From NCBI GenBank assembly GCA_963748625.1, contig CAVVJT010000010.1, positions 160,001 to 224,000 of the forward strand: a DNA stretch of 64,000 bases, read 5' to 3'. This document shows, piece by piece, positions 1 to 54,165 of the stretch; within the stretch, counting starts at the first letter, position 1, and every line of letters begins with the position of its first letter. The DNA comes from an uncultured Chloroflexia bacterium (lineage in GTDB: Bacteria; Chloroflexota; Limnocylindria; Limnocylindrales; CSP1-4). Position numbers and translations under genes: made by a program. The notes beneath the pieces are model-generated. The model did no database searches and was not told where the DNA came from. It saw only the letters and a program-made list of their open reading frames with translations.

Positions 1-213
1 GAGCCGCTCGGTGGAGAGGCCGACCACCCAGGCGAGGCCCAGGATCGCGACCGCGCTGACCACGAAGACGACAGCCCCCTCCACGTGGAGCCCGAAGTCC
101 ACGATCATGGCGACGATCGACAGCGTGAGGGTGACGAGGACGGCGATCCGGGCGGGCACGGACAGCGCACCGAGGATCGGGAGACGGGAGGCGCGGGCGG
201 GGGCGGGTCTCAT
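1..213 (-). CDS. Ca2+/H+ exchanger (CAX/ChaA family), 5' part only, runs off window start
   Basis: My translation: MRPAPARASRLPILGALSVPARIAVLVTLTLSIVAMIVDFGLHVEGAVVFVVSAVAILGLAWVVGLSTERL. Hydrophobic helices ending in LAWVVGLSTERL resemble the CAX alpha-1 region. TAGGAT -10 lies 6 nt upstream of the ATG. Confidence 0.6.
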   Translation of the reverse strand, partial: MRPAPARASRLPILGALSVPARIAVLVTLTLSIVAMIVDFGLHVEGAVVFVVSAVAILGLAWVVGLSTERL

Positions 214-312
214 GGCGAGATCCTACGGCGGCCGGAGGGGCGGCGCCGGCAGATCACGGCGTCCGCCAGGAGATCGGACCGCACGGCCGTGGACGTCCGG
301 CCGCACGGTGCG

Positions 313-1386
313 TCAGGCGGCCGGCTGTCCGTCCGCGGCCGGTGCGAGGCCCGCGGCCTGGGTAGCCTGGACGGCCTGCGGCGCCTCGATGAAGTGGCAG
401 GCCGCGAGGTGCTCGGGACCTCCCAGCGCCTGGTGACGGACGAGTTCCGGCTGCGTCGTGGCGCAGATCTCCGGTCGGCCGAGCTGCATGCGCAGGGGGC
501 ACCGCGGATGGAAGCGACAGCCGGTCGGCGGGTTGAGCGGCGATGGCACATCGCCGGTGAGGACCACGCGGCGGCGACGGTCGCGCACATCCGGGATCGG
601 GATCGAGGACATCAGGGCCTGGGTGTACGGATGCTGGGGATCGCGGAAGATCACCTCGCGACCGGCCAATTCGGCGATGCGGCCCAGGTACATCACCGCG
701 ACACGGTCACTGATGTGCTCGACGACGCCCATGTTGTGGGCGATGAAGACGTACGTGAGGCCAAGCTCTCCCTGGAGCGTCTTGAGCAGGTTGAGGACCT
801 GCGCCTGGATCGACACGTCCAGGGCGGACACGGGCTCGTCGCACACGAGCAGCTCCGGCTCCAGCACCAGCGCCCGTGCGATCCCGATCCGTTGCCGCTG
901 ACCGCCCGAGAACTCGTGGGGATACCGGCGAGCGTGGTACGGGGCGAGGCCGACAAGGTCCATCATCCGGCGGACCTTGGCACGCCGCTCTTCGGGCGTG
1001 CCGAGATTGTGGATGCGGAGCCCCTCGCCGATGCTGTCGCCGATCGGCGTCCGCGGATCGAGCGAGGAGAACGGGTCCTGGAAGATGATCTGGATCCGGC
1101 GCCGGAACGGCTTGAGCGCGGTTCCCTTCAGCGCGGTGATGTCCGTGCCTTCGAAGTGGATCGTGCCCGACGTGGGCTCGATGAGGCGCAGGAGCAGGCG
1201 ACCGATGGTGGTCTTGCCGCAGCCGGACTCGCCCACGAGACCGAGCGTCTCGCCCCGCATGATCTCGAAGCTCACGTCCGTCACGGCACGAACCTGGCCG
1301 ACGGTGCGCTGGAGCGCGCCTCCTTTGACCGGGAAGTCCTTGCTCAGGGAACGCACGGCCACGAGCGGCGAGCCAGCCGGCGTCAT
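313..1386 (-). CDS. Peptide ABC transporter ATP-binding subunit (DppF/OppF type)
   Basis: GESGCGKT Walker A, FSGGQRQR signature, [11 protein letters not shown] Walker B, C-terminal GCRFHPRC; ATG at 1386 overlaps the upstream stop. Confidence 0.93.
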
Positions 1387-2552
1387 TCGCTCGCCCCGGC
1401 GATGGTGGTGTCCACGGGCGGCACCCATCCCTCCGGCCGGTCGATGAGCCGACCGGCCGCGTCGTGATACAGCCAGCAGCGGACGTCGTGGCCCGGCGCG
1501 ACCGCCAGCAACTCCGGGTGCGACTCGAACGCCCCGGGCTCGGGCTCGGCAGACCGCGAGGTGCAGCGGGGCGCAAACCGGCAGCCCTTCGGAAGGTCGA
1601 TGAGGTTGGGCACGTTGCCCGGGATCACGGAGAGCTCCAACTGCGGCCGCCCGAGCACGGGGATGGATCCGATGAGCCCGCGCGTGTAGGGATGGCGCGG
1701 CTGGTCGAAGAGCGTCGCCACGTCGGTATGCTCGACGATCTCGCCCGCGTACATCACCGCGACACGGTCGCACGTCTCCGCCACCACGCCAAGGTCGTGC
1801 GTGATCAGGACGACCGCCGTGCCTGTCTCGTCGCGGAGATTCCGGATCAGGTCGAGGATCTGCGCCTGGATGGTGACGTCCAGCGCCGTCGTCGGCTCGT
1901 CGGCGATCAGCAGCTCGGGTTCGCACGCGAGCGCCATCGCGATCATCACCCGCTGGGCCATGCCCCCCGACATCTCGTGGGGGTAGTTCTTGAGGCGCCG
2001 CTCGGGATCCGGGATACCGACCATGCGCATGAGCTCGAGGGCTCGCGCCAGCGCCGGTCCCCTGCGCATGTTGCGGTGGATCTCGAGGACCTCCGCGATC
2101 TGGCGACCCACATCCCAGACGGGGTTCAGCGAGGACGTCGGCTGCTGGAAGATCATGCTGATGCGCTCGCCGCGGATCTTGCGCATCTCGTCCGACGAGA
2201 GCTTGAGCAGGTCCTGGCCGTCGAACAGGATCTCGCCGCCCTCGATCCTGCCGGGCTGGCCCACAAGCTGCAGCACGGACAGGGACGTGACGCTCTTGCC
2301 GCACCCGGACTCGCCGACGAGCCCCACGATCTCGCCACGATCCACGTGGAAGTCGATCCCGTCGACCGCCTTGACGACGCCGTCCCGCGTGTAGAACGAC
2401 GTGCGCAAGCCCTTGATCTCGAGCAGCGGGCGGTCGCCGCGGTCGCGCCGGGAGCGTCGCTGCGCCAGTGGGGCCAGCTCCTCGACGGGCGGCTCGAGCG
2501 ACGTGTCTGCCTCCGGATCCACGGGGGATCCGGCGCTGGCGGTACGCCTCAC
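1383..2552 (-). CDS. Peptide ABC transporter ATP-binding subunit (DppD/OppD type)
   Basis: [34 protein letters not shown]; start uncertain (GTG 2552 overlapping the permease stop, or GTG 2522). Confidence 0.92.
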
Positions 2553-3505
2553 CGGTTCAGCCGCGGGTCCAGCGCATCGCGCAGGCCGTCGCCGAGGAGG
2601 TTGAAGGCAAGGACGGTGAGAATGATCGCGAACCCCGGGGCAAGGATCTCGTGCGGGGCGTTGAACAGCTGGTTGCGCTCCAGGCCGATCATGGATCCCC
2701 ACTCGGGCCTGGAGAGGTCGCCCGTGACGCCGATGAATGCGAGCGCCGCGATCTCCAGCACGGCGCCGCCGATGCCGAGCGTGCCCTGGACGACGAGCGG
2801 GGTGATCGCATTGGGCATGATCCGCCGGGTGAGGATGCCCGCACCCGACTCGCCGAGCGCACGGGATGCCGTCACGAAGTCCGCCTCCTTGGTCGAGAGC
2901 ACGGCCGCACGTGCGATCCGGGCATAGATCGGCACCGAGACGATCCCGATGGCGAACAGCGCGTTGACCATGCTGGCCCCGGCCGCGGTCACGATGGCGA
3001 TCGCCAGCAGCAGCGACGGGAACGCCAGCACGATGTCCATCGATCGCATGAGGACGTTGTCCGGTCCGCCACCCACATAGCCAGCCAGCGCGCCGATGGT
3101 GGTGCCCACGACGATCGCGAAGCCGATGGCGGCGAAGCCGATCGCGAGCGAGGTGCGTGCCCCGAAGACAACGCGGCTGAACACGTCGCGGAAGTTGCCG
3201 TCGGTGCCGAACAGGTGCTGGGGCTGGCTCTCCGGGCATCCGAGCAGGTGGATGCACGGGGCGGCCCGCTTCGTCACGCCGGGCTCCTTGCCCAGCAGGC
3301 TGGCGTCCGGATCGTGCGTGGCGATGACGGGCGCGAACAGGGCCACGAAGACGAGCATGCCCAGGATGATCAGCCCGACCTTGGCCGACCGCTGCCGCCA
3401 GATCTGGCGCAGCGTGTCCCTCCACAGGCCGCCGGAGTATGCGACCGCCTCCTGGCCATCGGGCGGCGCGAGGGTCGTCGGGGGCACGGGTGCCAGGCCG
3501 CTCAT
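2549..3505 (-). CDS. Peptide ABC transporter permease (DppC/OppC type)
   Basis: [18 protein letters not shown]-like loop [29 protein letters not shown]. Confidence 0.93.
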
Positions 3506-4578
3506 TGCAGCCGGATCCTCGGATCGAGGAACCCGTACGAGATGTCGACGATAAGGTTGATCAGCACGTAGCCCACGGCGATGAGCAGGGTGAAGCCCTG
3601 GATGACGACGTAGTCACGGCCGGAGATCGCCTCGAACAGGGATCGCCCGACACCGGCCAAGTTGAACACAGTCTCAGTCAGGACGGCGCCTGACAGGAGC
3701 AGGCCCATCTGCAGGCCGATGATCGTGACCACCGGCAGAAGGGCGTTTCGCGCGCCGTGGCGGAGGACCACGGCTCGCTCGCCGACGCCTTTCGCCCGCG
3801 CCGTCCGGATGAAGTCCAGCCCCAGGACGTCAAGCAGGCTCGAGCGGGTGATCCGGGCGATGATCGCTAGCGGGATGGTGCCCAGCGCGATCGCCGGCAG
3901 GATGAGGTGCCGGAAGGCGTCGGCAGCCGCACCCCACTGGCCGGTGATCAGCCCGCTGAAGATGTAGAGCCCCGATACGAAATCCAGGACGGCGCGTGCC
4001 GGCCCGTCGAGGCTCTGGAGGCCCCAGACCTTGACAAGGGGCTCGACCGTGACGCCCGAGCTCAACCGGCCAGATGGCGGGAGCGCGAACGGCGTGTCCT
4101 TGAGGATGATCGCGAACAGGAACGCAAGGAGCAGGCCGAGCACGAAGACGGGGATCGAGACCCCGAGGTTGGCCAGCATCATCGTGCCGACGTCAACGGG
4201 CGAGTTACGCCGGTACGCCGACAGCAGCCCGAGTGGGATGCCGACGACGACCGCGAAGACCATCGCGAGCACCGCCAGCTCCACGGTCGTCGGCAGGCGC
4301 TCGATCAGCAGCGTCGTCACCGGCCGTGAGTGCTTGATGGAGACGCCAAGGTCACCGCTCACCAGCTGCCCGAGGTAGCCCACGAACTGGACGGGGATCG
4401 GCTGGTCGAGGCCGTACCGGACGATGAACTCGTCACAGACGATGTCGGTCGCCCGCTCGCCCAGGACGGCACGACACGGGTCGCCGGGGATGATCCGCGC
4501 AAGGGCGAACACGAGGAACACGATCCCGATCAGCACCGGGATCGTCACGATCAGGCGGCGAATGATGAACTTGATCAT
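3502..4578 (-). CDS. Peptide ABC transporter permease (DppB/OppB type)
   Basis: PGDP, GLDQP..VQF, GDLGVS, FIRTARAKG, DISYGFLDPRI. Confidence 0.93.
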   Translation of the reverse strand: MIKFIIRRLIVTIPVLIGIVFLVFALARIIPGDPCRAVLGERATDIVCDEFIVRYGLDQPIPVQFVGYLGQLVSGDLGVSIKHSRPVTTLLIERLPTTVELAVLAMVFAVVVGIPLGLLSAYRRNSPVDVGTMMLANLGVSIPVFVLGLLLAFLFAIILKDTPFALPPSGRLSSGVTVEPLVKVWGLQSLDGPARAVLDFVSGLYIFSGLITGQWGAAADAFRHLILPAIALGTIPLAIIARITRSSLLDVLGLDFIRTARAKGVGERAVVLRHGARNALLPVVTIIGLQMGLLLSGAVLTETVFNLAGVGRSLFEAISGRDYVVIQGFTLLIAVGYVLINLIVDISYGFLDPRIRLQ

Positions 4579-4792
4579 CGCTGGTCACGCCCTCGCGACA
4601 GGACCGCAGACGAACCCACTGCCCGTGAACCCTCTCGAGTGGGGCCGGCGACCGGTGTGTGCGCTCCAGGGTCGCATCACGGCGTCCTGCAGCGGCTCCA
4701 CGCTCACGCTCGTGGACCGAGGCGCGAGCGTACCACGACGGTCGGCCCGGACGACGGTTGCGCTCGTCGCGGGATCACCAGTGCCCGCCACC

Positions 4793-6376
4793 CTAGGCGC
4801 CCGGGATCCCGGCCTCGCCTCGGACCTTCCGGCGGTAGGCTCGCCAGGTCACGGCCCACCGCGTGGGGTCCTCGAGCACGTCATGGTCGATCGTGTGGAT
4901 CGTGCTCCGGTGGGGTGCGGTACGGACGGTCTCCGGCTCCTCCCGCGCCTCGCGCGCAATCGACCCGAGGATCGCCGCGTACTCGTCCAGGTCCTCCTTC
5001 GAGTACGACTCCGTCGGCTCGAGGGTGAATGGCTCCGGAACGATGAATGGGTGGTGACTCGTCCAGTAGTGGACGCCGTGGTCCGCGGCGCGCTGGCCCA
5101 CGTGCTCGGTGGTGATGCCCGTCTCGTCGGTCAGCTGCTTCCAGCTGTAGCGGACCTGCTCGATCCTGCGCTTGCCCACGGCGTACGGCGCTGCCGCACC
5201 CTGGATCTCGAGGACCCGCTTGAGGAGGTAGTTGTTGTTGAGGACGGCGATCTCGGCGACCTCACGAAGGCCCTCGGCGCCCAGGCTCATGATCCACGCG
5301 TACGCGCGGAGGAGGTTCGGCGTCACGCCGTAGAACGGGCGCACCTTGCCGATGCTCTCCGGCCGGTCGTCGTCGAGCCGGAATGTCGTTCCGTCGTACT
5401 CGACCGTCGGCCGCGGCAGGAACGGGACAAGGCCCTCCGCCACGCCGCTGGCACCGGCACCCGGCCCGCCGCAGGCATGCGGCGTCGAGAAGGTCTTGTG
5501 CAGGTTGAAGTGACACGTGTCGAACCCAGCGTCCCGGGCGCGGGTGATGCCCAGGATGCCGTTCGCGTTTGCCTGGTCGTACGAGGCCAGGCCCCCCGCC
5601 TCGTGCACCACTCGCACCCAGTCGGCGATCTCGGGGTTGTAGATCCCGGTGTCCTCCGGGTTGGTGATGAGGAGCGCAGCCGTGCGGTCGCTGACTGCCT
5701 CCTTGAGCGCGTCGAGGCGGGGGTAGCCGTCAGGATCCGGATGGAGCGTGATGACCTTGTAGCCGGCGGTCTTCGCGCAGGCCGCGTTCGAGGGATGCGA
5801 GAAGATCGTGGTGATCACTTCGTCGCGCCGGTCGCCGTCTCCACGGGCCGCGTGGTAGGCGCGGATCATCGAGATGTTGGCGTAGATCGCGGCCGATCCC
5901 GCGGCGGGCTGCAACGTGAACCGGTCCATGCCGCTGATCTCGCGCAGCAGCTGCTCCAGCCTCCAGATCACCTCGAGGACACCCTGCACGGTGGACGGGT
6001 CCTGGAGCGGGTGGAGATCCGCCAGCTTCGGCGATCGCACCAGCTGGTCGTTGACCTTGGGGCTGTACTTGACGGTGCAGGTGCCCTGCCCGACGTCGAT
6101 GTTCAGGTCGGCCCCGAGGTTCTCCTGTGACAGGCGGTCGAAATGACGCACCACGTGGACTTGGGCGAGCTCGGGGAGTGCCGGTGGCACGACCCGGCGG
6201 ACACCGGCCGGCAGCGCCGCGGCAGGGTCGCCCACGGCATCGCTGATCCCCTGCTCAACGGGCGGCATGAGGATCCCCCGGGCGCCGGGCTGGCTGAGCT
6301 CGAAGATGATCGGCTCGTCCCAGCGGGCCTGGTGGAAGCGCCGGAGGGCCGGCTTGGGCTCGATCGGCCAGCTCAT
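4793..6376 (-). CDS. gcvPB: Glycine dehydrogenase (decarboxylating) subunit 2-like, divergent paralogue
   Basis: QPAAG, TNPEDTG, DQANAN, PLP-lysine motif HFNLHKTFSTPH, EPTES; ATG at 6376. Confidence 0.85.
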   Translation of the reverse strand: MSWPIEPKPALRRFHQARWDEPIIFELSQPGARGILMPPVEQGISDAVGDPAAALPAGVRRVVPPALPELAQVHVVRHFDRLSQENLGADLNIDVGQGTCTVKYSPKVNDQLVRSPKLADLHPLQDPSTVQGVLEVIWRLEQLLREISGMDRFTLQPAAGSAAIYANISMIRAYHAARGDGDRRDEVITTIFSHPSNAACAKTAGYKVITLHPDPDGYPRLDALKEAVSDRTAALLITNPEDTGIYNPEIADWVRVVHEAGGLASYDQANANGILGITRARDAGFDTCHFNLHKTFSTPHACGGPGAGASGVAEGLVPFLPRPTVEYDGTTFRLDDDRPESIGKVRPFYGVTPNLLRAYAWIMSLGAEGLREVAEIAVLNNNYLLKRVLEIQGAAAPYAVGKRRIEQVRYSWKQLTDETGITTEHVGQRAADHGVHYWTSHHPFIVPEPFTLEPTESYSKEDLDEYAAILGSIAREAREEPETVRTAPHRSTIHTIDHDVLEDPTRWAVTWRAYRRKVRGEAGIPGA

Positions 6377-7773
6377 CGGAGGACCTCGGTCAGCTCGCTG
6401 GCAAGACGGTCGATGTCGTCCTGCGTGTGGATCTCGGTGACGCAGTAGAGGGCCGCTTCCCCGAGCTCGGGGAAGTCGCGGGCGAGATCCCAGCCGCCGA
6501 AGATGCCCCGGTCGAGCAGTGCGGCGTTGACGTCGGCAGTGGCCCGGCCCGAGGGACCGAAGTCCACAACGAACTCTCGGAAGTGATGGCTCGCCCGGTG
6601 ACGGACCTCGACGCCCGGGATCGCGGCGACGCGGTCCATCGCGTAGCGGGTCCGCGCCATGATCCCCTCGCCCAGCTCGACCATCCCCTGCGGGCCAAGC
6701 AGCGACAGGTAGACGCCCGCGGTGATGCCCCACAGGGCGGCTGCGGTGCCGACCCACTCCTTGCCCTCCTCCCGGAGGGCGAAGCTCGTGCGCTCGTAGG
6801 CGACGTCACCGAAGCCGTACTCACCCTCGACCGAGGTCGGTGCGAGCCCGAACAGCCGCGACGGCAGCTCCATGACGAGCTTCGGATCGTCGCGCACGCC
6901 GATGTAGCCGGCCTGCCCGCCACCGTACTGGAGGTGCATCCCGAGCGATTGGATGTCGCCGCAGGCGATGTCCGCACCGTAGGCCAGCGGCGGCTCCAGC
7001 ACGCCCAGGCTGATCGGGTCCGCGCCGACGACGAGCAGCGCGCCCGCCTCGTGGGCGATCCGGGCGATCTCGGCCCCCACCGTCGAGATGACCCCGAGGA
7101 AGCTGGGGTTCTCGAGGTAGACGCCGGCCGTCCGATTGTCAACGAGAGCGGCGAGCGCCGCCAGGTCCACCTCGCCGGTCTGCTCGTCGACCGGCGCCAA
7201 CACAAACTCGTAGCCGCGCAGGTAGTCCCGGATTCTCGACAGCTTGTCGCGGCCCAGGGTGCGGGTGACGACGAGCCTCCGGCGCCCGGTGACCCGGGTG
7301 GTCATCGCCAGCGCCGTGGACGCCGCCTGGAACCCGTCGTACGTGGGCACGTTGACGACGTCCATGGTGAGCAGCTCACCCATCATCGACTCGTACTCGA
7401 ACAGGGCCTGGAAGCGGCCGTGGTCCTCGTAGGGGTCGCCGGCGTACGCGGTCAGGAACTCGGCCCGCCCGTTGATCTCGTCACAGACCGCGGGGACGTG
7501 GTGCTGGAAGGCGCCGGCGCCGAGGAAGCTCAGGACCTCGCGCGTGGAGCGGTTCCGGGCAAGCATGCCCTCGACGTGGCGCACCAGCGCCGCCTCCGAC
7601 GTCAGCGGCGGCGGCAGGTCGAGCGGCCGGTGCATCCGCAGCTCGGACGGGATGGACGCGTACAGCTCCTCGATGTCGGCGGCGGCGATCTCCGCCAGCA
7701 TCTCCGCCTTGACCCTCGGGATCGAGTTGGGGATGTACGGATGCACGCGGGCCCCACTCGAGCCAGGCAACAT
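6373..7773 (-). CDS. gcvPA: Glycine dehydrogenase (decarboxylating) subunit 1-like, divergent paralogue
   Basis: HPYIPNS, SFLGAGAFQH, ALFEYES, GADIACGDIQSLG, YCVTEIHT; this is the 3' part of track ORF 6373..11037. Confidence 0.85.
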   Translation of the reverse strand: MLPGSSGARVHPYIPNSIPRVKAEMLAEIAAADIEELYASIPSELRMHRPLDLPPPLTSEAALVRHVEGMLARNRSTREVLSFLGAGAFQHHVPAVCDEINGRAEFLTAYAGDPYEDHGRFQALFEYESMMGELLTMDVVNVPTYDGFQAASTALAMTTRVTGRRRLVVTRTLGRDKLSRIRDYLRGYEFVLAPVDEQTGEVDLAALAALVDNRTAGVYLENPSFLGVISTVGAEIARIAHEAGALLVVGADPISLGVLEPPLAYGADIACGDIQSLGMHLQYGGGQAGYIGVRDDPKLVMELPSRLFGLAPTSVEGEYGFGDVAYERTSFALREEGKEWVGTAAALWGITAGVYLSLLGPQGMVELGEGIMARTRYAMDRVAAIPGVEVRHRASHHFREFVVDFGPSGRATADVNAALLDRGIFGGWDLARDFPELGEAALYCVTEIHTQDDIDRLASELTEVLR

Positions 7774-8001
7774 GACGGTCCCTTTCTGAAGGTCGGTTGT
7801 CAGGTCCGGCCCCGGGGACGAGGGCCACGACACGAGCGCAGGCTGCCAGGCGCACAGGACGCACGCGCGTCCAGAGCACGCACTCACCGTCGAGCTTCTC
7901 GCATAATACCGTTCGGCCCCTGCCCTGCATGACCATCCGCAACGTGTCTCGGGCCGTGCGCCGCATCCCGCTGCTGCACACCGCCGAGAGGACTGTACGC
8001 G

Positions 8002-10455
8002 ATGACGGAGCCCGTCCCCACCCATGCTCAGGCCGTCGTGGTCGGCGGCGGCATCCTCGGCACGTCGGTCGCGTACCACCTCACCCGGCGCGGCTGGCGG
8101 GATGTCGTCCTGGTCGAGCGTGCACAGCTGACGGCCGGGACGACCTGGCACGCGGCCGGCCTGATGATGCAGGTGCAGTCCTCGCGGACCGCGACCCAGT
8201 TCGGGACGTACAACGACGAGCTGATCCCGGAGGTCGAGGCGCTGACCGGGATGCAGACCGGCTACCGCCGCACGGGCTCGATCCTCATGGGCAGCACCGA
8301 CGCACGCTGGGAGGAGATCCGCCGATCGATCTCGCTGGCCCACGCCTTCGGCGTCGAGGCGCACCGGATCGACGCGGCGGAGGCAAGGCGCACCTGGCCG
8401 CTGCTCGATACCGCGGGGATGACAGGTGCCGCGTTCTTCCCCGCCGACGCGGTGGCCGATCCGACGGACCTGACGCTCGCGATGGCGGCCGCCGCCCGCC
8501 TCGGGGGGGCACGGATCCTCCAGCACACCGCCGTCACGGAGGTCGTCACGGCCGCCGGCCGCGTCCGCGGGATCCGCACCTCCCGAGGTGACATCGCCAC
8601 GGACACCGTCGTGGACTGCACGGGCATGTGGGCACGCGAGTTCGGGCGGCGGTCGGGCGTCTCGATCCCGCTGCACGCGGCCGAGCACTTCTACCTCGTC
8701 ACGGAGGAGATCGGAGCGCTGACCCCGAACCTGCCGGTCCTGCGCCTCCCCGACGAGCGGACGTACGTGAAGGAGGACGCCGGCAAGCTGCTGGTCGGGT
8801 TCCTGGAGGTTGAGGCGAAACCGTGGGCGACCATGGGAATCCCGGACGGCACCGAATTCGTCCGGCTGCCCGAGGACTGGGATCACGTGGCCCCGGAGCT
8901 CGAGCTCGCTGCGCGCCGGCTGCCCATCCTCAACGACGTGGGCATCATGCTGCACTTCAATGGTCCCGAGAGCTTCACGCCGGACGACCGGGCGATCCTC
9001 GGGCCCGCGCCCGAGCTGGCCGGGTACTGGGTGGCCGCCGGGTTCAACTCCCACGGCCTCCGCAGCGGCGGCGGCGCCGGGCGGGCGATCGCCGACTGGA
9101 TCGTCGACGGCGACCCCGGGCAGGACCTCTGGGAGATGGACATCCGGCGCTTCGCACCGTTCCAGGGGAACCGGCGCTACCTGCGCGACCGCGTCGTCGA
9201 GTCGGTCGGCCTCCTGTACGCCCCGCACTGGCCGTTCCGCCAGGTGGAGACCGCGCGAGGCGTCCGGAGGACGCCGTACTACGACCGGCTCGCGGCACGC
9301 GGCGCCTGCTTCGGCGAGCTCATGGGCTGGGAGCGCGCCAACTGGTACGCGCCGCCCGGCGTCACGCCGGCGTACGAGTACTCGCACGGGCGCCAGAACT
9401 GGTTCCCCTACTCGGCCGAGGAGCACCGTGCCGCTCGCGAGGGCGTGGCCGTCTTCGACGAGTCGACCTTCGGCAAGATCCTCGTGTCGGGCGCCGATGC
9501 GTGCACCGTCCTCAACCGCATCTGCACCGCGGACGTGGACACCGCCGTCGGGCGCATGGTCTACACCCAGTGGCTCAACGATCGAGGTGGCATCGTCGCC
9601 GACGTCACCGTCACGCGACTGGAGGAGACGGCGTTCCTGGTCGCAACCGGCGGTCCCGTTCTCTACCACGACCTGCACTGGCTGCGCAGCCACATCCCCG
9701 CCGACGCGCGCGCGGTCGCCGTCGACGTCTCGAACGCATGGGCGGTGCTGGGCGTGATGGGTCCCCGGTCCCGCGAACTGCTGGCCACCGTGACCGACAG
9801 CGACCTCTCCAGCGACGGGTTCCCGTTCGCGACCTCGCGCGAGATCGACCTCGGGCACGCGTTCGTGCGCGCCTCGCGGATGACCTACGTGGGCGAGCTC
9901 GGGTGGGAGCTCTGGATCCCGGGTGACGTGGCGTTGCACGTCTACGACGCGATCGTCGCCGCCGGCGAGCCCTTCGGCCTGCGGCACGCCGGGTTCCACG
10001 CAATGGATTCCCTGCGGATCGAGAAGGCCTACCGCAGCTGGGGGCACGACATCGGCGAGACCGACACCTCGCTCGAGGCCGGGCTCGGCTTCACCCACGC
10101 GTTCGACAAGCCAGGCGGGTTCATCGGGCGCGAGGCGGTGCTCCGGCAGCGGGAGGCCGGCCTGCGGCGCCGTCTCGTCGCGTTCGCGCTCGCGGATCCG
10201 GACCGGCTGCTCGTCCACAACGAGCCGATCTGGCGCGACGGCGCCCTCTGCGGCTGGATCACGTCCGCCGCGTATGGTCACACGGTGGGCAGGTCGATCG
10301 GACTGGGCTTCGTCGCCCGTCCGGACGGGGGGACGGTCACCGCCGACTGGGTCGAGTCCGGCCACTACGAGCTTGAGATCGCCGACGAGCGTGTCCCCGC
10401 CACGGCGTCCCTGCGGGCGTTCCACGACCCGGGCAACGCCCGCATCCGGGCCTAG
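8002..10455 (+). CDS. FAD-dependent oxidoreductase with C-terminal GcvT-like folate domain (dimethylglycine/sarcosine dehydrogenase family)
   Basis: GGGILG dinucleotide motif, GTTWHAAGL, NGPESFTPD, GWERANWY, YVGELGWEL, SLRIEKAYRSWG. Confidence 0.9.
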   Translation: MTEPVPTHAQAVVVGGGILGTSVAYHLTRRGWRDVVLVERAQLTAGTTWHAAGLMMQVQSSRTATQFGTYNDELIPEVEALTGMQTGYRRTGSILMGSTDARWEEIRRSISLAHAFGVEAHRIDAAEARRTWPLLDTAGMTGAAFFPADAVADPTDLTLAMAAAARLGGARILQHTAVTEVVTAAGRVRGIRTSRGDIATDTVVDCTGMWAREFGRRSGVSIPLHAAEHFYLVTEEIGALTPNLPVLRLPDERTYVKEDAGKLLVGFLEVEAKPWATMGIPDGTEFVRLPEDWDHVAPELELAARRLPILNDVGIMLHFNGPESFTPDDRAILGPAPELAGYWVAAGFNSHGLRSGGGAGRAIADWIVDGDPGQDLWEMDIRRFAPFQGNRRYLRDRVVESVGLLYAPHWPFRQVETARGVRRTPYYDRLAARGACFGELMGWERANWYAPPGVTPAYEYSHGRQNWFPYSAEEHRAAREGVAVFDESTFGKILVSGADACTVLNRICTADVDTAVGRMVYTQWLNDRGGIVADVTVTRLEETAFLVATGGPVLYHDLHWLRSHIPADARAVAVDVSNAWAVLGVMGPRSRELLATVTDSDLSSDGFPFATSREIDLGHAFVRASRMTYVGELGWELWIPGDVALHVYDAIVAAGEPFGLRHAGFHAMDSLRIEKAYRSWGHDIGETDTSLEAGLGFTHAFDKPGGFIGREAVLRQREAGLRRRLVAFALADPDRLLVHNEPIWRDGALCGWITSAAYGHTVGRSIGLGFVARPDGGTVTADWVESGHYELEIADERVPATASLRAFHDPGNARIRA

Positions 10456-10589: not shown

Positions 10590-12314
10590 CTACTCGGCGG
10601 GCGGCGGGTTGAGGAACCCTCCGAAGTTGCCGGGGATGTAGGAGAACAGCCCGTCGCGACCGACGTGCAGCGGGTTCTCGGTGTCCCAGTAGGCCCCGAA
10701 GCTGGCCACGACGTCGTTGGCGTCGAAGGTGGCGCCGTCGTGGAACGTGACGCCGTCTCGCAGGGTGCAGGTCCAGACCGTCAGCTCGGCGTTGGGCTTG
10801 CACTCGGTCGCGAGGGCCGGGATCGGCTTGGTGCCGCCCAGCTCGTATGCGTACAGGGACTCGGAGATCTGCTCGCAGGCCCGGAGGGCCTCGCCGTCGG
10901 ACTCGTCGGGGCAGAACAGGCTGAGCGGCTCCAGGTTCTGGTCCCAGACCAGGGTGTCGCGGTCGCCCGCCTTCATCTTGGCGAACTGCTCGTTGCCGAG
11001 CGGGCTCGAGTGGGCCCCTTCGACGTCCGCCTTCCATGCCGTTCCGGAGCCGCCATGGATCATGACGACGGCCGGGACATGCTCCTTGATGAGGTTGTTG
11101 GCCTCGGCATAGGCGGCAGCGCGGTCAGCGTCTGCGGCCGATGACCCGCCCTTGGCCAGGGCGGCGGCGATGTCGTCGAACGGCTTGCCGAAGATCTTGC
11201 CGGAGCCTGCGCCGAAGTGGTAGTCGAGGAAGTTCGTGGGATCGGGGAAGTCGGCACCCCAGCCCAGCAGCACCAGGCCGTCGAGCGTGCCCTCCTGCTG
11301 CGCGGCGAATAGCGCACCGGACTCCATGACGTCGATCGTGGCGTCAACGCCGATGTTCGCCTTGAGCTGCTGCGCGATCTCGGTGGCGATGACCGGCGGC
11401 TCGGGCAGGTAGCCGCGCACCGCCGTCCGGAAGGTGATCTTGGTCTTGAAGCCATCCGGATAACCGGCCTCGGTCATCAGGCGCTTGGCCTCGGTGGGAT
11501 TGAAGTCCCACGTCGGATCGCCCTCGCACGCGAACGGGATCGCGCACGGGGTGAAGTGGGTCGCGACCTCGGAGCCGGGCGGGTAGAAGTTGTCCACGAT
11601 CTGCTGGCGGTCGATGGCCATGGCGATCGCTTGCCGGACCTTGGGGTCGTCCCAGGGCTTCATGGTCACGTTCATGCCGAGGTAGAGGATGTTGAGCCCC
11701 GACCGCTCCTTGAAGGCGAGCGTCGAGTCACCCTTGATCGTCTCGATGTCGGTCACGCCCGGGTTGTCGATGCCGTCCACGTTGCCCGACTGGAGCTCGA
11801 GCAGCCGCTGCGCGGCCTCCTCGGCCCAGCGGAACTCGACGAACTGGGACAGGGCCTTGTCGCCCCAATAGGCGTCGTTGCGCTCGAGGACGACGCGGTT
11901 CCCCTTGCTCCACTCCTTGAGCTTGTAGGGACCGGTGCCGTTGGGCTGGTCAAGGATGGACTTGTCCTGCGCATGCGCTGCGAGGTAGTCAGCATCGTTG
12001 ATGCCGAAGGCCGCGAAGGCGACCTTCGCGAGGAAGGCGACGTCCGGGTTGCACATCTGGAACTCGACGGTCTTGGCGTCGAGTGCCGAGATCTTCTTGA
12101 AGTTGCCCGTATAGGGGGCGACGCCGCACGGGGCCTCGCCCGTCTCGGGGTACGAGGTGGCCGTGAAATCGGCCGGGGCCTCGCTCGTCGGTGCGGCCGT
12201 GGCAGGGGCTGACGTCGCAGGGGCCTGCGTCGAGGTCGACGAGCCACATGCCGCGACGAGCAGCACCGTCGCGGCCAGAACCGCGAGCGGTGCCCTCCTC
12301 GGTGATCCGCGCAT
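10590..12314 (-). CDS. Family 5 ABC substrate-binding lipoprotein, circularly permuted
   Basis: Lipobox LLVAAC, Ala/Pro/Thr linker, PNGTGPYK, VRQAIAMAID, GWGADFPDP; the usual N-terminal segment (PALA..WTCTLRDGVTFHDG..FDANDVVASF) is at the C-terminus; RBS GGAGGAGGAG. Confidence 0.9.
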   Translation of the reverse strand: MRGSPRRAPLAVLAATVLLVAACGSSTSTQAPATSAPATAAPTSEAPADFTATSYPETGEAPCGVAPYTGNFKKISALDAKTVEFQMCNPDVAFLAKVAFAAFGINDADYLAAHAQDKSILDQPNGTGPYKLKEWSKGNRVVLERNDAYWGDKALSQFVEFRWAEEAAQRLLELQSGNVDGIDNPGVTDIETIKGDSTLAFKERSGLNILYLGMNVTMKPWDDPKVRQAIAMAIDRQQIVDNFYPPGSEVATHFTPCAIPFACEGDPTWDFNPTEAKRLMTEAGYPDGFKTKITFRTAVRGYLPEPPVIATEIAQQLKANIGVDATIDVMESGALFAAQQEGTLDGLVLLGWGADFPDPTNFLDYHFGAGSGKIFGKPFDDIAAALAKGGSSAADADRAAAYAEANNLIKEHVPAVVMIHGGSGTAWKADVEGAHSSPLGNEQFAKMKAGDRDTLVWDQNLEPLSLFCPDESDGEALRACEQISESLYAYELGGTKPIPALATECKPNAELTVWTCTLRDGVTFHDGATFDANDVVASFGAYWDTENPLHVGRDGLFSYIPGNFGGFLNPPPAE

Positions 12315-15675: not shown

Positions 15676-17475
15676 ATGACCTTCCCGCGCCGGCGCATGC
15701 CGGCCCTTGCGCTGGCCGCCCTCGTGGCGGGCGCATGCGGCTCGACCCCGGCCCCCTCCGCGACACCACCACCCGCTGCCGGACGGACCCCCGCACCGAT
15801 GCCCGCGGCCGCGGCCGAGCGGCCCTTCAGGACGGTCACGTGGCCGGCCGGCGGATCCTGGTGCGACGTGGCCGACGCGGCGGCGTCGGGCGTGCGCATC
15901 GGGCGCATCGAGGCGCTGGACGCCCGCACGGTCCGGTTCACGTTGTGCGCTCCGGATGCGGCCTTCGCGGCACGCCTCGCGGACCCCGTGGCAGGCGTGA
16001 TCGATGCGGCGGCCGTGGATGCGATTGCCGCCGACCCATCCCTCGGGCGGTTCGCCGCCGGCGCGGGCCGCTACCGCGTCGAGGCGTGGTACCCGGGCGC
16101 GAACGTGCGGCTCACGCGGGTGGCGGCGGAGCCCGGCGCCAAGGGCGACGACAAGGTGCCCACGATCGTGCTCCGCTGGAGTGCACGCGGATCCGAACGC
16201 GTGGATGCCATCGGCGAAGGGGCCGTGGACGCCGTGGACGGCGTCGGCGCAGCGGAGCTCGAGGCGGTCGCGACCCTGCCCGAGCTCATCACCCTGGACA
16301 GGGCCGGCATGGCCACGGCCTACCTGGGCTTCGGCTACGGGGCCGACTTCGCGCCGGTCGCGGTGCGCAGGGCCTTTGGCGAGGGCCTCGACCGTGCGGC
16401 ACTCACCACCGCAGCGTTCGCTCCCGGCGCCACGGTGGCGAGCCACCTCGCGCCCTGCGTCGTGCCCTTCGGGTGCACCGGCCAGGACTGGTACGAGGCG
16501 AACGCCCCGGCCGCCGTCGCCGCCCTCAGCGCAGCCAAGTTCGACAGCAAGGCGACCTACCCGCTGGTCATCCCCTCCGAACCGGTCCCAGGGCTGCCAG
16601 ACCCGGCCGCGCTCGGCGAAGCGGTCAAGGCGCAGGCGGCGGAGCGCCTCGGCGTGACGCTCGAGGTGACCCCGATGGCGCCGGCGGAGATCGCCGATGC
16701 CCTTGCCGGGCGGCGCCTTCGCGGCCTCTACCTCGCGGGGATCGACTCCCGCCTCGCTGATGCGTCAGGCTTCCTCGATCCACTCTTCGGGCGAGGAGCC
16801 CAGGGCGTTGCGGTGGATCGCGCAGGCGATGCCCGTGCAGCGCTCATCAAGGCCTCGGAGACCACGGACGTGGATGACCGGGCCGACGCCTTCCGTGTCG
16901 CGAACATGGCCATCCGCGACGGCGTGCCGCTGGTCCCGATCGCGCACCCGGGCGCCGTCATGGCCGTCCTCGACGACGTTGCGGGCGCGGTCACCTCCCC
17001 GCTGTGGGTTGAGCCGCTCGGGCGGTTCGTCCCGGGCGATCGCAGCCAGCTCGTCCTCATGCAGGCCGGCGAGCCGGCGAGCGCGTGGTGCGCCGTCGCC
17101 TCCGCCCCCGACGACCGCCGCCTCTGCGCCCTCGTCACCCCGGGGCTCCTGGGCTTCCGCCCGGACTCGCTTGACACGGCGCCCGGGATCGCGACCCGGT
17201 GCTCCCCGGACGAGACCGCGACCGTCTGGACGTGCCGGCTGCGCGCCGACGCACGGTTCACCAGCGGAGCGCGTGTGGACGCCGGCGACGTGCTCGCGTC
17301 GTTCGCCGCCCAGGCGGATCCTGCGAGCGACCTGCGGGCCGCGCTGCCCCCCGCGACGTTCGGGGCGTGGGACGAGCTGTTCGGGGCACCTGCAGGTCCT
17401 GAGCCACTCCCCTCCCCATCCGTAACGCCTGGGCCGTCGGCGACCTCGGACGGCGCCGCGACCGCGAAGCCGTAG
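15676..17475 (+). CDS. Second circularly permuted family 5 ABC substrate-binding lipoprotein (divergent, orphan)
   Basis: Lipobox LVAGAC; colinear with 10590..12314 (IEALDARTVRFTLC, APCVVPFGC, WTCRLRADARFTSG..VDAGDVLASF near the C-terminus); TGcTAGGCT -10 just upstream. Confidence 0.82.
   Translation: MTFPRRRMPALALAALVAGACGSTPAPSATPPPAAGRTPAPMPAAAAERPFRTVTWPAGGSWCDVADAAASGVRIGRIEALDARTVRFTLCAPDAAFAARLADPVAGVIDAAAVDAIAADPSLGRFAAGAGRYRVEAWYPGANVRLTRVAAEPGAKGDDKVPTIVLRWSARGSERVDAIGEGAVDAVDGVGAAELEAVATLPELITLDRAGMATAYLGFGYGADFAPVAVRRAFGEGLDRAALTTAAFAPGATVASHLAPCVVPFGCTGQDWYEANAPAAVAALSAAKFDSKATYPLVIPSEPVPGLPDPAALGEAVKAQAAERLGVTLEVTPMAPAEIADALAGRRLRGLYLAGIDSRLADASGFLDPLFGRGAQGVAVDRAGDARAALIKASETTDVDDRADAFRVANMAIRDGVPLVPIAHPGAVMAVLDDVAGAVTSPLWVEPLGRFVPGDRSQLVLMQAGEPASAWCAVASAPDDRRLCALVTPGLLGFRPDSLDTAPGIATRCSPDETATVWTCRLRADARFTSGARVDAGDVLASFAAQADPASDLRAALPPATFGAWDELFGAPAGPEPLPSPSVTPGPSATSDGAATAKP

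Positions 17476-18144: not shown

Positions 18145-18148
<4 letters not shown>
17537..18148 (-). CDS. Hypothetical lipoprotein (Pro/Ser/Thr linker plus helical domain)
   Basis: Lipobox LVIAGC; GTG start overlaps the upstream stop; GC3-biased codons. Confidence 0.75.
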
Positions 18149-19817
<1,669 letters not shown>

Positions 19818-19821
<4 letters not shown>

Positions 19822-20942
19822 GCGTCACCAAGCCTGTCGGGGGCGCCGGTGAGACGGCGACCCATCCGCATGTTGTCGTCGTGCTGGCGGATGGCAGCAT
19901 CGAGCCGGGCGGCCTCCCCGGCCAGGTGCAGATGGCAGCGTCCCACCTGGCCGTCGTCGCCTGCCGGGTAGAGCTCTGGCGGGACGCTCCGGCACAACTC
20001 CCACGAGTATGGGCAGCGGGGCTCGAACCGGCAGTTCGGAGGCAGGTTGAACGGCGACGGGACGACGCCCTTGATCGCCGAGAGCCTGCCGCCGCGCTTC
20101 TCCACGGTCGGGATCGACTCGATCAGGCCCATCGTGTAGGGCATCCGGGGCTCCAGGAGCACCTGGTGCACGGTCCCCTGCTCCACGATCTGGCCCGCGT
20201 ACATCACGATCACGTGCTCGACCATCTCGGCGATGACTCCCAGGTCATGGGTGATCAGGAGCAGGGCCGCACCCGTGCGCTCCTGGATCGCCTTGAGCAG
20301 CTCCATGATCTGCGCCTGGACCGTCACATCGAGGGCGGTCGTGGGCTCGTCCGCGATGATCAGCTTCGGGTCGCACGAGAGCGCCATCCCGATCATCACA
20401 CGCTGGCGCATGCCGCCTGAGAGCTCGTGCGGGTACTGCTTCGCGCGCCGCTCAGGGCTGTTGAGGCCCACGAGGCGGAGCATCTCGACGGCGCGGTCCT
20501 TGGCCTCCTTCTTGGAGACCTTCATGTGCAGCTCGACCTGCTCCGCGATCTGGTCGCCGACCGAGAACACCGGATTCAGGCTCGTGAGCGGCTCCTGGAA
20601 GATCATCGCCATGTCGTTGCCGCGGAGCCGCCGCATCTCCTCGTTGGGGATGTGCAGGATCTCGCGGCCGTCGAACCAGATCTCGCTCTGCTCGCCGATC
20701 GAGGCCGGCGGGATGTCGAGCAGGCGCATGATCGTGAGCGCGGTGACCGACTTGCCCGATCCCGACTCGCCGACGATGCCGAGCGTCTTGCCGCGGGCCA
20801 GCGAGAAGCTGATGTCATCGACGGCCGGCACGGTGCCGTCCATCACCTTGAAGTAGGTCTTCAGGCGTCGGATGTCGAGCAGGACGTCATCAGGGGGCGG
20901 TGTTCCCGCCCCCGGCAGCACGGTGGTCGTTGTCTCCGTCAT
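19818..20942 (-). CDS. OppD-type ABC ATPase
   Basis: [34 protein letters not shown]. Confidence 0.92.
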
Positions 20943-21988
20943 GCGCGCGACCTCGGGTCGAAGGCATCGCGGAGGCCATCGCCCACGAAGTTGACCGCGA
21001 GCACGGTGATGATGATCGCCACGCCCGGGAAGAACGGCCACCACCAGTTGCCCAGGGCGAGGAACTGCAGGCCGCCCGACAGGATGTTGCCCCACGACGG
21101 TGACGTGGGGTCCACGCCGAACCCGAGGAAGCTCACGAACGCCTCGGAGATGATGTTCGCGGCCACCAGCAGGGAGGCCACCACCACGATCGGGCTGAAC
21201 GCGTTGGGCAGGATGTGGCGGAAGATGATGCGCCGGTCGCGGACACCCACCGCGAGCGCCGCCTCCACGAACTCGCGCTCGCGGATGGAGAGGAACAGCG
21301 ATCGCACGAGGCGGCTGACGCCCATCCAGGAGAAGAGTCCGAAGATCACGATGACAGTGGTGACCGTGCCGTTGCCGAGGAACTTGGCCGCGACGAGGAT
21401 CACGAACAGGGTGGGCAGGCTGAGCATGATGTCGACGAGGCGCATCAGCGAGTTGTCGACCACGCCACCGGCGAAGCCCGCGATGGAGCCGACGACGGTA
21501 CCGATCAGGACGCCGATCGCCATGCTGACGAAGCCGATCAGGAGCGACGTGCGGGCCCCGTTGACGACGAGCGTGAGCACGTCTCGCTGGAGGCCGCCGG
21601 TCTCGCCCATCGGGTGGGTCAGGCCCCACGCCTCGCAGTTGCGCTCCTGGGCCTGGTACTGGACGCAGAACGGGGGACGGCCGGTCTGGACGATCTGGTC
21701 AGGATCCGGGATGTCCTTGAAGTCGAAGGGCATCAGGATCGGCCCGAGCACGGAGACCAGGAGGATCACGCCGAGGATCGCCAGGCCGATGAGGGCCAGA
21801 CGGTGCTTGCGGAACTTCCGCCAGGCGAGCTGCCACTGGTTGAGCGACTGCAGGCCGACCTCGTAGTCGGCGGCCTTGGTCGGGTCCGGATCCACGATCT
21901 CCGCAACGGTCGGAGCCGGCTCCGCAGCGGGCTGGCCCTCGGGCTCGGACGCGGCGGGATCCGCCATGGGGTTCTGGGGTTCGGTCAT
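20939..21988 (-). CDS. OppC-type ABC permease
   Basis: QWQLAWRKF, GARTSLLIG, EFVEAALAVG, PSWG, NFVGDGLRDAFDPR. Confidence 0.92.
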   Translation of the reverse strand: MTEPQNPMADPAASEPEGQPAAEPAPTVAEIVDPDPTKAADYEVGLQSLNQWQLAWRKFRKHRLALIGLAILGVILLVSVLGPILMPFDFKDIPDPDQIVQTGRPPFCVQYQAQERNCEAWGLTHPMGETGGLQRDVLTLVVNGARTSLLIGFVSMAIGVLIGTVVGSIAGFAGGVVDNSLMRLVDIMLSLPTLFVILVAAKFLGNGTVTTVIVIFGLFSWMGVSRLVRSLFLSIREREFVEAALAVGVRDRRIIFRHILPNAFSPIVVVASLLVAANIISEAFVSFLGFGVDPTSPSWGNILSGGLQFLALGNWWWPFFPGVAIIITVLAVNFVGDGLRDAFDPRSRA

Positions 21989-21996
21989 CGGGCGGC

Positions 21997-23118
21997 TCAG
22001 TACTTGATGCGGGGATCGACAACCCCGTACATGACGTCGGCGAGCAGGTTCGCGAAGACCACCAGCATCGAGGTGACGAGGAGGACCCCCATCAGGATCG
22101 GGTAGTCGAACGTGCGCGTGGCGTCGATGGTCAGGTTGCCGATGCCCGGCCACGAGAAGATCGTCTCGGTGACGATCGCGCCCGTGAACAGGAACGGGAT
22201 CTCCAGGCCGATGTTGGTGATCACCGGCAGCATCGCGTTGCGGAGCGCGTGCTTGAAGTTGACGACGCGCGCCGGGAGGCCCTTCGCCTTGGCCGTGCGC
22301 ACGAAGTCCGCGCTCAGCGTCTCGAGCATGCTCGCCCGGACGAAGCGGCTGTCACCGGCGATGTTGACGACCACGAGCGTGACCACCGGCAGGAGGAGGT
22401 GCTTGCTGATGTCGGTGATCGCCTGGAGCGGCTTCTGGCCGAAGTACTCCCAGTACTTCTCCGAGCCGAACGGGGGCGAGAGGCGTGTCTCGGTCATGCC
22501 GCCCGCCGGCAGGATGTTCAAGCCCGGACCGCTGAAGATGAAGATCAGCATGATGCCCAGCCAGAAGGTGGGCATCGCGTAGCCCACGTAGCTGAACACC
22601 GTGGCCACGTTGTCGAACAACGAGTACCGGTGGATGGCGGCGTACACCCCCACCACGATGGCGATCACCAGCCAGACCACGAGGGCCGTGCCCGCCAGGA
22701 TCAACGTTGGCAGTGCAGCGCGCGCGATGCGCACGCTGACCTTCTCGCCCGAGCTGATCGAATAGCCGAGGTCCCCGTGCAGGACGCCGTTGGTGGCGCC
22801 GGACAGGACCTCGGGCAGGAAGTTGGGCAGCCCGCTCGGCCCGATGAACGCGGGGAGCGTGGGCAGCGAGCCGAGGAACGTCCCCTCGGTCTCCGGGTTG
22901 CAGATGCCCATCCAGCGGCAGTACTGGATCGGCACGGGCTGGTCAAGGCCCCACGCCTTGATGAACTTCTCCTTCATCGCATCCGTGAACTTGGGGTTGT
23001 TCGCGAACTTCGCCTGGGGTCCCCCAGGTGCGGCAAGAAGGATTCCGTAGACCACCACGGTGATCCCGAACAGGACCGGGATCGCCTGGAGGACGCGGCG
23101 CAGGATGAACTTCGTCAT
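21997..23118 (-). CDS. OppB-type ABC permease
   Basis: GLDQPVPIQY, GDLGYS, FVRTAKAKG, FSWPGIG, DVMYGVVDPRI. Confidence 0.92.
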   Translation of the reverse strand: MTKFILRRVLQAIPVLFGITVVVYGILLAAPGGPQAKFANNPKFTDAMKEKFIKAWGLDQPVPIQYCRWMGICNPETEGTFLGSLPTLPAFIGPSGLPNFLPEVLSGATNGVLHGDLGYSISSGEKVSVRIARAALPTLILAGTALVVWLVIAIVVGVYAAIHRYSLFDNVATVFSYVGYAMPTFWLGIMLIFIFSGPGLNILPAGGMTETRLSPPFGSEKYWEYFGQKPLQAITDISKHLLLPVVTLVVVNIAGDSRFVRASMLETLSADFVRTAKAKGLPARVVNFKHALRNAMLPVITNIGLEIPFLFTGAIVTETIFSWPGIGNLTIDATRTFDYPILMGVLLVTSMLVVFANLLADVMYGVVDPRIKY

Positions 23119-23230
23119 GGACGATGTGCCTCAGCCCCGAGCAAGCTTCTGAGCAATGGGTCGGCCGCCAGTCCGGCCGGCAGGGTTGCGCGGAAGATAC
23201 ACGCGTCCGCGGAACGCTGCCGGTCGCAAG

Positions 23231-23263
23231 CGGCGGGGCGCCCGGAGACCGGGCGCCCCGCCG
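23231..23263 (-). terminator. GC-rich hairpin between the SBP and permease genes (partial terminator or mRNA-stabilising stem)
   Basis: CGGCGGGGCGCCCGG-AGA-CCGGGCGCCCCGCCG. Confidence 0.7.
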
Positions 23264-23288
23264 AGTTGATCGCTGGATCTGGCAGCGG

Positions 23289-25163: not shown

Positions 25164-25348
25164 CAAGGCTCCTCCAGGCTGCGTAGGGTCGGGGGACTAC
25201 TGCTCCCTCGCAGGACCTCCGACCGTGCCGTGCGCAGGGCGCGCACGGGCAACGGGCAGCAGGGCTGCGCTGGCTGCAAGATCGCTTACCGCGCACACGG
25301 GTGTCAAATCGCAGGATCGGATCGCCGGGCCGGATGGTCCCAGCGTAC

Positions 25349-39723: not shown

Positions 39724-39800
<77 letters not shown>

Positions 39801-54125: not shown

Positions 54126-54165
54126 GGGGTCGAGTGTCGCACAGGCGGTGGTCACCGGGCGGCCG

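Follow-up and report, generated by a model that had tools for sequence, protein, structure and literature searches.

Introduction

Can a binding protein of a familiar kind occur in nature with its chain rotated, and if so, what does it bind and which transporter does it serve? This question is raised by a gene on the minus strand (12314..10590) of a 64,000-nucleotide stretch of DNA, here called the window, from an uncultured Chloroflexia bacterium (GenBank assembly GCA_963748625.1, contig CAVVJT010000010.1, positions 160,001 to 224,000). The gene encodes P0001, a 574-residue substrate-binding lipoprotein of family 5, the family of DppA and OppA, which an earlier note, made from the DNA sequence alone, had read as a circular permutant. 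Cluster C binding proteins are among the best-studied bacterial receptors and are common biosensor scaffolds, in which circular permutation is engineered by hand.

Here, we report that P0001 is a new topological variant of this well-known kind of protein. In our judgement, it is very probably a permuted, DppA-like lipoprotein receptor for a dipeptide-like ligand, with its partner genes at 4584..313 and with its origin in a fusion of modules.

Results

Chain order of P0001

The gene and the parts of its product are as follows.

10590..12314, minus strand: gene of the circularly permuted family-5 substrate-binding lipoprotein P0001 (574 residues), stop codon included (open reading frame, ORF, and translation; PF00496; swapped DppA pieces)
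12165..12314, minus strand: signal peptide and lipobox (Cys23), then an Ala/Pro/Thr/Ser-rich tether, residues 1 to about 50 (sequence; predicted local distance difference test, pLDDT)
10971..12116, minus strand: piece B, residues 67-448, corresponding to about residues 120-507 of mature DppA and holding R300, Y302, and D355 (VIA alignment, residue mapping)
10620..10961, minus strand: piece A, residues 452-565, corresponding to the N-terminal ~117 residues of mature DppA, placed last (phmmer, piece-A profile, residue mapping)

The preferred start of the minus-strand ORF is the ATG at 12314, with a Shine-Dalgarno-like AGGAGGAGGAG 6 nt upstream, and a simple scan for promoters and terminators around the gene found nothing. 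The lipobox and the linker behind it, both recognized in the earlier note, were read from the sequence as LVAAC with Cys23 and the Ala/Pro/Thr/Ser-rich tether. Among 49 aligned members of the family, at least 90% keep Cys23, and the pLDDT stays below 62 up to residue 50 in the AlphaFold2 model. A homologue, P0003, is 96% identical to P0001 and of equal length, with full query coverage.

The Pfam profile SBP_bac_5 (PF00496) matched P0001 at 278.3 bits, relative to a cut-off of 32.4, in two stretches, the best of which pairs residues 69-370 with profile positions 62-364 of 368. The NCBIfam equivalog for DppA, NF043070, scored 180.9 bits against a cut-off of 1005 (residues 73-447 on model positions 153-532 of 535), and all ten families listed in the NCBIfam search were under their cut-offs. 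These scores place P0001 as DppA-like, not as a DppA orthologue.

All three alignments shown by phmmer against the PDB consist of two pieces in swapped order. For 1dpe, the mature E. coli DppA, residues 74-446 of P0001 matched 126-503 (141.6 bits) and residues 486-562 matched 35-117 (20.6 bits, independent E-value 0.0012). For 5f1q, the corresponding matches were 75-448 to 155-533 and 484-564 to 61-147, and for 3tpa they were 72-444 to 131-507 and 473-559 to 28-121. The alignment to the annotated Yersinia DppA was likewise swapped (75-444 to 155-529 and 483-562 to 60-145), as was that to the normal-order OppA of the window at 23289..25166 (220-350 to 373-508 and 496-547 to 119-181), which the earlier note had proposed as an internal control. 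In addition, when the C-terminal piece of the permuted family was used alone as a profile, it matched the N-terminal region of all 15 normal-order proteins of family 5 that were scanned (14 from Chloroflexota and one Yersinia DppA; 16.8-105.6 bits), which exceeds chance. P0001 does not have the canonical chain order of SBP_bac_5 proteins, and this departure from the norm is one of topology, not of homology.

The alignment to DppA and SBP_bac_5 thus came out as two swapped pieces, as the earlier note had expected, and the swapped order of the DppA/OppA segments that it described stands. Two of its details need correction. The chain does start inside DppA, yet not in the middle: roughly one quarter of DppA precedes the break, which is at mature residues ~117/120. 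Similarly, the segment that normally opens these proteins is indeed placed last, but comprises ~120 residues (453-574) rather than ~100.

Predicted fold

The check by structure prediction that had been suggested returned a single confident fold. The AlphaFold2 model, for which the input was a 49-sequence alignment, has a mean pLDDT of 92.5 and a predicted template modelling score (pTM) of 0.87, and nearly all of residues 51-570, including the moved piece, exceed a pLDDT of 90. Foldseek ranked DppA-type structures first, over ~376-396 columns of ~507-residue targets, with target-normalised template modelling (TM) scores of 0.62-0.70. In VIA, model residues 68..450 were placed on 1dpp 120..507 (Z 30.1, root-mean-square deviation 3.1, 381 residues), and the values for 1dpp and 5f1q were Z 30.1-30.7 over 381-384 residues.

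All 50 VIA rows listed end at model residue 447-452, which is equivalent to the last chain residue in 1dpp and 1dpe (507 of 507) and in 1ola (517 of 517). Model residues 453-574 were left unaligned despite their pLDDT of >90, as would be expected of sequential aligners acting on a circular permutant. Model residue 450 falls on the final residue of 1dpp, and in a relative with another chain order (type B, see below) the counterpart of residue 452 is matched to 1dpp residue 1; near residue 451, a link of ~1-2 residues connects the old C-terminus to the old N-terminus. We infer the three-dimensional placement of the moved piece from sequence homology, model confidence, and the type-B relative.

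P0001 contains four Cys pairs, in three of which (257/263, 468/480, and 505/516) the presence of one Cys co-varies with that of the other across the permuted family, suggesting that these pairs form disulfides.

Occurrence in the Chloroflexota

For every one of the best 120 homologue clusters (63-96% identical), a single local alignment spans 88-100% of P0001. An exhaustive search of 50%-identity representatives gave 996 matches at E <= 1e-30; among the 150 representatives listed, 107 have the order of P0001 (hereafter type A), 1 is a tandem, 4 have another order, and 38 are fragments that carry the first piece only.

A scan of species-representative genomes with a 12-sequence alignment of the permuted family gave 571 relatives, of which the best 78 loci all bear Chloroflexota names, distributed over the classes Limnocylindria, Anaerolineae, Ardenticatenia, Caldilineae, and Chloroflexia. 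Of 201 genomes sampled evenly from the phylum (six candidates scored per genome, so that distant permuted copies may be missed), 26 contain a full colinear match, that of the window included. Two further genomes of the sample hold the orthologue in pieces, one split by an apparent frameshift (G022) and one as fragments at contig ends (G090). The remaining 44 genomes with a match are restricted to residues ~57-75 to ~404-468, which corresponds to the normal order. Among 72,556 plasmids, 456 records matched and none of the 456 covered >=80% of P0001. The third cluster in a protein-atlas look-up is mostly Actinomycetota, the look-up being silent on chain order. In G022, the split orthologue (G022:C7:1584485-1586126) lies in two overlapping frames matching query residues 9-425 and 425-562, probably owing to a frameshift or a sequencing error.

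The window's genome contains two permuted copies, both inside the window, the second (15676..17475) having the same chain order. At a locus (L096) of G079, a genome of the same genus, only a relative of the second paralogue was seen (48% identical), and a search of G079 with P0001 as the query found no close P0001 orthologue, the best match being 36%.

Because many independent assemblies share the same order, the swapped order is not an assembly artefact. The natural circular-permutant subfamily posited in the earlier note is borne out by these surveys, including the taxonomic one that it called for: the subfamily is large and conserved, and it forms one clade in the trees described below.

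A second permuted order and the trees

P0134 and P0239, both of which have proper lipoprotein signals, start at the equivalent of about P0001 residue 287 and end at that of about 285 (type B), giving the piece order B (second part)-A-B (first part). The AlphaFold2 model of P0134 has a pLDDT of 79.6 and a pTM of 0.77, and VIA placed its residues 211..575 on 1dpp 1..343 (Z 24.9), which puts the type-B break at DppA ~343. The model shows piece A occupying the DppA N-terminal region in P0134, a close relative of the type-A proteins.

For P0134, the best 120 clusters comprise 67 of type B and 53 of type A, and the nearest type-A protein, P0353, shares 78.9% identity with it over 511 residues, aligned as two swapped pieces. 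For P0239, the best 120 clusters comprise 54 of type B and 66 of normal order, and the nearest normal-order protein, P0459, is 86.9% identical over 526 residues. Both type-B proteins represent families, not singletons, and pairs that differ in order have diverged by only 13-21%.

For the trees, the pieces of each row were rearranged into one common order, and 83 candidates (fragments or ambiguous piece matches) as well as P0251 and P0002 were omitted. In the FastTree tree (103 rows), all 84 type-A rows fall into one clade (support 0.981), which also includes P0134 and both units of the tandem protein P0172. The same type-A clade was recovered in a quick IQ-TREE search of 61 rows, made up of every row outside type A and a chosen 42 of the 84 type-A rows, with a Shimodaira-Hasegawa-like approximate likelihood-ratio (SH-aLRT) support of 98. 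In this second tree, P0134 is nested beside P0135 (61% identical), and P0239 lies among normal-order Chloroflexota proteins, 15 normal rows and P0239 being grouped with a support of 98. The tree positions of type A, P0134, and P0239 indicate at least three permutation events, from normal to A, from A to B, and from normal to B, with the second break loop (DppA ~343) apparently used twice.

Tandem and fused forms

P0172 (1202 residues) is laid out as signal-[A-B][A-B] and ends in a tail, and P0001 is colinear with it across the internal junction (residues 81-571 to 189-667, 30% identity). P0251 (2754 residues) contains five family-5 units head to tail, and two adjacent permuted genes occur at L011:6329-9728. 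Permuted modules are also strung behind other binding-protein domains, in a lipoprotein with SBP_bac_8, SBP_bac_3, and permuted SBP5 (L042:5736-9566, 1277 residues) and in one with SBP_bac_3 and permuted SBP5 (L060:6978-9515, 846 residues). In the approximately unbiased (AU) test, a tree with P0172 outside all permuted rows was not rejected, being 13.3 log-likelihood units better (p-AU 0.756).

Duplication, fusion, and truncation is the general model for the origin of circular permutations. The layout of P0172 and the result of the AU test fit this route, and the type-A order most likely arose by head-to-tail fusion of two family-5 modules followed by loss of the outer parts.

In a survey of 23 long or unusual relatives scanned with Pfam, the type-A module was C-terminal to Pkinase (8), TIR (2), caspase plus FHA (1), and double zinc ribbon (1) domains (P0145, P0146, P0148, P0156, P0166, P0190, P0207, P0208, P0127, P0141, P0144, and P0158), and to Peripla_BP_6 (4), SBP_bac_3 (1), and DUF11 (1). 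The remaining 5 were two proteins without a recognised partner, the tandem P0172, and two type-B proteins. In the kinase, TIR, caspase plus FHA, and zinc-ribbon fusions, the permuted module is presumably extracytoplasmic. Normal-order relatives also sit behind other domains, namely SBP_bac_3, Bmp, OpuAC, Peripla_BP_4, and fasciclin. Since normal-order modules are found in like fused positions, the fusions give no demonstration that tethering required permutation.

Ligand-binding residues

R300, Y302, and D355 of P0001 align to R383, Y385, and D436 of DppA (alignment to the annotated Yersinia DppA, E. coli numbering). According to PMC12136057, R383 and D436 of DppA form salt bridges with the carboxyl and the amino group of the dipeptide, and the R383D+D436R mutant did not bind Gly-Leu or Ala-Ala. 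The conservation of these clamp residues in P0001 suggests a receptor of the dipeptide type, the ligand of which is probably dipeptide-like, with its amino and carboxyl groups free. The distinct ligand that had been considered possible thus finds no support for P0001, in which the clamp Arg and Asp (R300 and D355) are conserved. In the second paralogue, the DppA-type clamp residues are not conserved; together with their variability in the family, this suggests that the ligand range has diversified among the permuted proteins.

Transporter genes

The permease and ATPase genes of the window that are relevant to P0001 are the following.

3502..4584, minus strand: OppB-type permease, likely partner (Pfam BPD_transp_1_N and BPD_transp_1; orthologues next to the binding-protein gene)
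2549..3505, minus strand: OppC-type permease, likely partner (Pfam OppC_N and BPD_transp_1; orthologues in close loci)
313..2552, minus strand: two Opp-type ATPase genes (Pfam ABC_tran and oligo_HPY), start codons approximate

In 9 of 12 related loci, Pfam detected Opp-type permease genes (OppB- and/or OppC-type) 3' of the binding-protein gene on the same strand, and several of these nine continue with oligo_HPY ATPase genes. L001 is a tenth permease-linked locus, as detected by tblastn; L011 has only an ATPase further on, and no permease or ATPase is shown at L060. At all four of the closest loci, where the binding proteins are 60-70% identical to P0001, oppB and then oppC directly follow the binding-protein gene. 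The oppB neighbours at these four loci are 66-75% identical to the window gene 3502..4584, and the oppC orthologues are 65-72% identical to the window gene 2549..3505. The operon link is therefore a property of the orthologues, from which we infer the partner in the window's own genome: P0001 is most likely the working receptor of the oppBCDF genes at 4584..313.

Surroundings of the gene in the window

Other features of the window are as follows.

4793..10455, no single strand: lineage-specific insert between the binding-protein gene and the permease genes (Pfam; not at the equivalent place in the four close loci)
8002-10455, plus strand: DAO-FAO_M-GCV_T protein in the insert, dimethylglycine/sarcosine-dehydrogenase-like (Pfam)
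7800-6373 and ~6370-4793, minus strand: glycine-dehydrogenase-like subunits in the insert (Pfam)
15676..17475, plus strand: second permuted paralogue, 599 residues, same chain order, 31% identical (colinear alignment with P0001)
23289..25166, minus strand: OppA-type lipoprotein in normal order, belonging to another, complete opp operon (internal control)

The second paralogue is without permease genes of its own and is convergent to the complete normal-order opp operon (25166..18145, minus strand). It adjoins a CN-hydrolase gene, at the position where relatives carry the P0001 orthologue, and the CN-hydrolase/NAD-synthase/methylase gene block beside it is inverted relative to those relatives. 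Elsewhere in the window, a second GcvP-like gene lies at 26656-28260 and an ordinary cell-division and cell-wall cluster lies at 48855-56103 (minus strand; FtsW, MraY-type transferase, Mur ligase, and penicillin-binding protein). Rfam detected a single tRNA over the whole window (39727-39800).

Discussion

The proposed receptor

In the arrangement that we propose, the chain of P0001 would open at a loop inside the extra domain of cluster C, at mature DppA ~117/120, would run to the former C-terminus and from there almost directly into the former N-terminus, and would end with the ~120 residues that normally come first. Both hinge crossings are presumably kept, going by the domain limits of DppA, and on this assumption P0001 would be expected to act as an ordinary Venus-flytrap receptor. 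It would capture a dipeptide-like ligand whose amino and carboxyl groups are both free and hand it to the Opp/Dpp-type permease and ATPases encoded at 4584..313. The permuted order would have been produced when a fused pair of family-5 modules lost its outer parts.

Several points weigh against this reading. Matches of the second piece to individual PDB sequences are weak (independent E-values of 0.0012 to 0.15). The structural aligners used are sequential and leave the moved piece without a superposition. The statement on the hinge depends on the DppA domain limits assumed. As to the ligand, the three clamp positions are kept in only 20, 25, and 25 of the 49 aligned family members. As to the transporter, ~6 kb, including a gene on the opposite strand, separates the P0001 gene from the permease genes of the window. 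As to the origin, the two units of P0172 are each other's closest relatives, for which reason P0172 is not proven as a surviving intermediate and may instead be derived.

Alternative explanations

It is conceivable, though we think it unlikely, that the ligand is not a peptide but a small N-methylated or glycine-related compound. The genes between the binding-protein gene and the permease genes encode a DAO-FAO_M-GCV_T protein and glycine-dehydrogenase-like proteins, and family-5 proteins have many non-peptide ligands, the PDB matches including binders of nickel, opine, sialic acid, and haem. However, the insert is missing in all four close relatives, which keep the binding protein and the permeases at 60-75% identity, and the free-amino/free-carboxyl clamp of DppA is conserved, although such a clamp would also fit an amino acid. 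We retain the dipeptide-like ligand as the probable one.

The permutation itself might have been adaptive, the tether point having been moved so that a lipid anchor, a transmembrane helix, or a different module can carry the permuted one. A recognised partner lies N-terminal in 17 of 18 fused proteins, and P0150, which has no recognised partner, carries extra sequence after the module. A similar idea has been raised for the permuted TpMglB-2 of Treponema pallidum (PMC4990184). Conversely, close normal-order relatives are also C-terminal modules behind other domains, normal-order lipoproteins occur in the same genome, and at 79-87% identity three chain orders still coexist, in keeping with near-neutral rewiring. 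We give the adaptive explanation a small probability. Considered as the leading reading, the tether hypothesis was demoted, as normal-order modules occupy the same fused positions.

Less probable still is that P0001 is mainly a sensor, signalling ligand occupancy to a membrane receptor or kinase instead of feeding a transporter. The permuted module does occur C-terminal to Pkinase, TIR, caspase plus FHA, and double zinc ribbon domains among the relatives scanned, the gene is detached from the permease genes in the window's genome, and DppA-type proteins also signal to chemoreceptors (review PMC8050422). P0001, however, stands alone as a lipoprotein, all four of the closest loci have its orthologue directly upstream of oppB-oppC, and the window contains the orthologous permease and ATPase genes in intact form.

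Finally, a local misassembly, or a gene call spanning two partial genes, has a negligible probability: the genome is apparently a binned assembly (10 contigs, 7.74% contamination), which is a general point only, whereas the same order occurs in hundreds of independent assemblies on contigs of up to 2.8 Mb and in the second paralogue (the earlier note had already held misassembly to be unlikely, given a second copy), and the frame of P0001 is uninterrupted, with a signal peptide, a ribosome-binding site, a stop, and a confident predicted fold.

Comparison with known binding proteins

The permuted receptor is best compared with the canonical cluster C proteins DppA of E. coli and Yersinia (1DPP, 1DPE, 5F1Q, and 8Z1Z) and Haemophilus GbpA/HbpA (3M8U and 3TPA), with which it shares the fold (VIA Z 30, 381-386 residues, 26-29% identity). 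P0001 and DppA have the dipeptide-clamping Arg, Tyr, and Asp in common, both carry an export signal, and the P0001 orthologues pair with OppBCDF-type genes. In contrast to DppA, the chain of P0001 is rotated, with the first ~117 mature residues of DppA placed last and the old termini fused, and P0001 is lipid-anchored and has four Cys pairs.

TpMglB-2 (Tp0684) is likewise a natural circular permutation of a binding lipoprotein of an ABC transporter (PMC4990184, in its accessible part). There it is named 'Type Ic / Cluster Bc', it still binds its ligand, and tethering is discussed as a possible reason for the permutation; neither tandem forms nor a set of differing break points is mentioned in the same part of the paper. 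Unlike P0001, TpMglB-2 is a cluster B sugar binder of another fold subtype and appears to have no sequence-level homology to P0001. The top sequence and fold matches of P0001 are all cluster C family-5 proteins, with no MglB-type chain among the matches listed, and we treat TpMglB-2 as analogous to P0001 in kind rather than related to it.

Forms in line with the model of duplication, fusion, and truncation were found here: a tandem (P0172, and the five-unit P0251), adjacent genes (L011), and differently truncated products (types A and B). Compared with the general model, the family shows normal, tandem, and two permuted orders coexisting in one phylum.

A full-text literature search, with supplements and some subscription journals outside its scope, found no description of a permuted family-5 or OppA/DppA-type protein. 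The word stem 'permut' is absent from the review on signalling by binding proteins (PMC8050422) and from the GisABCD paper (PMC10355420). TpMglB-2 was the only natural precedent in the literature searched, within which the undescribed status of the permutant, left unconfirmed in the earlier note, holds. The natural permutation series of the Chloroflexota family-5 proteins appears not to be in print.

Meaning for the family

Taken more broadly, we lean, with modest confidence, towards a permutation series among the Chloroflexota family-5 proteins that comprises the normal order, type A as an old, large clade, type B arisen twice, and tandems of intermediate layout. The stringing of modules would be the engine of this series, and the permuted module would serve as a portable extracytoplasmic sensor for Ser/Thr kinases, TIR proteins, and caspase-FHA proteins.

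The natural pairs at 79% and 87% identity, which differ mainly in where the chain starts, offer direct tests of folding, stability, hinge motion, permease docking, and tethering, and together with the tandem fusions they make the duplication-fusion-truncation route testable with living intermediates. For annotation, profiles see two partial SBP_bac_5 matches in the permuted proteins, and no curated model spans them end to end. An unstudied class of Chloroflexota receptors that sense peptides is suggested by the kinase, TIR, and caspase-FHA fusions.

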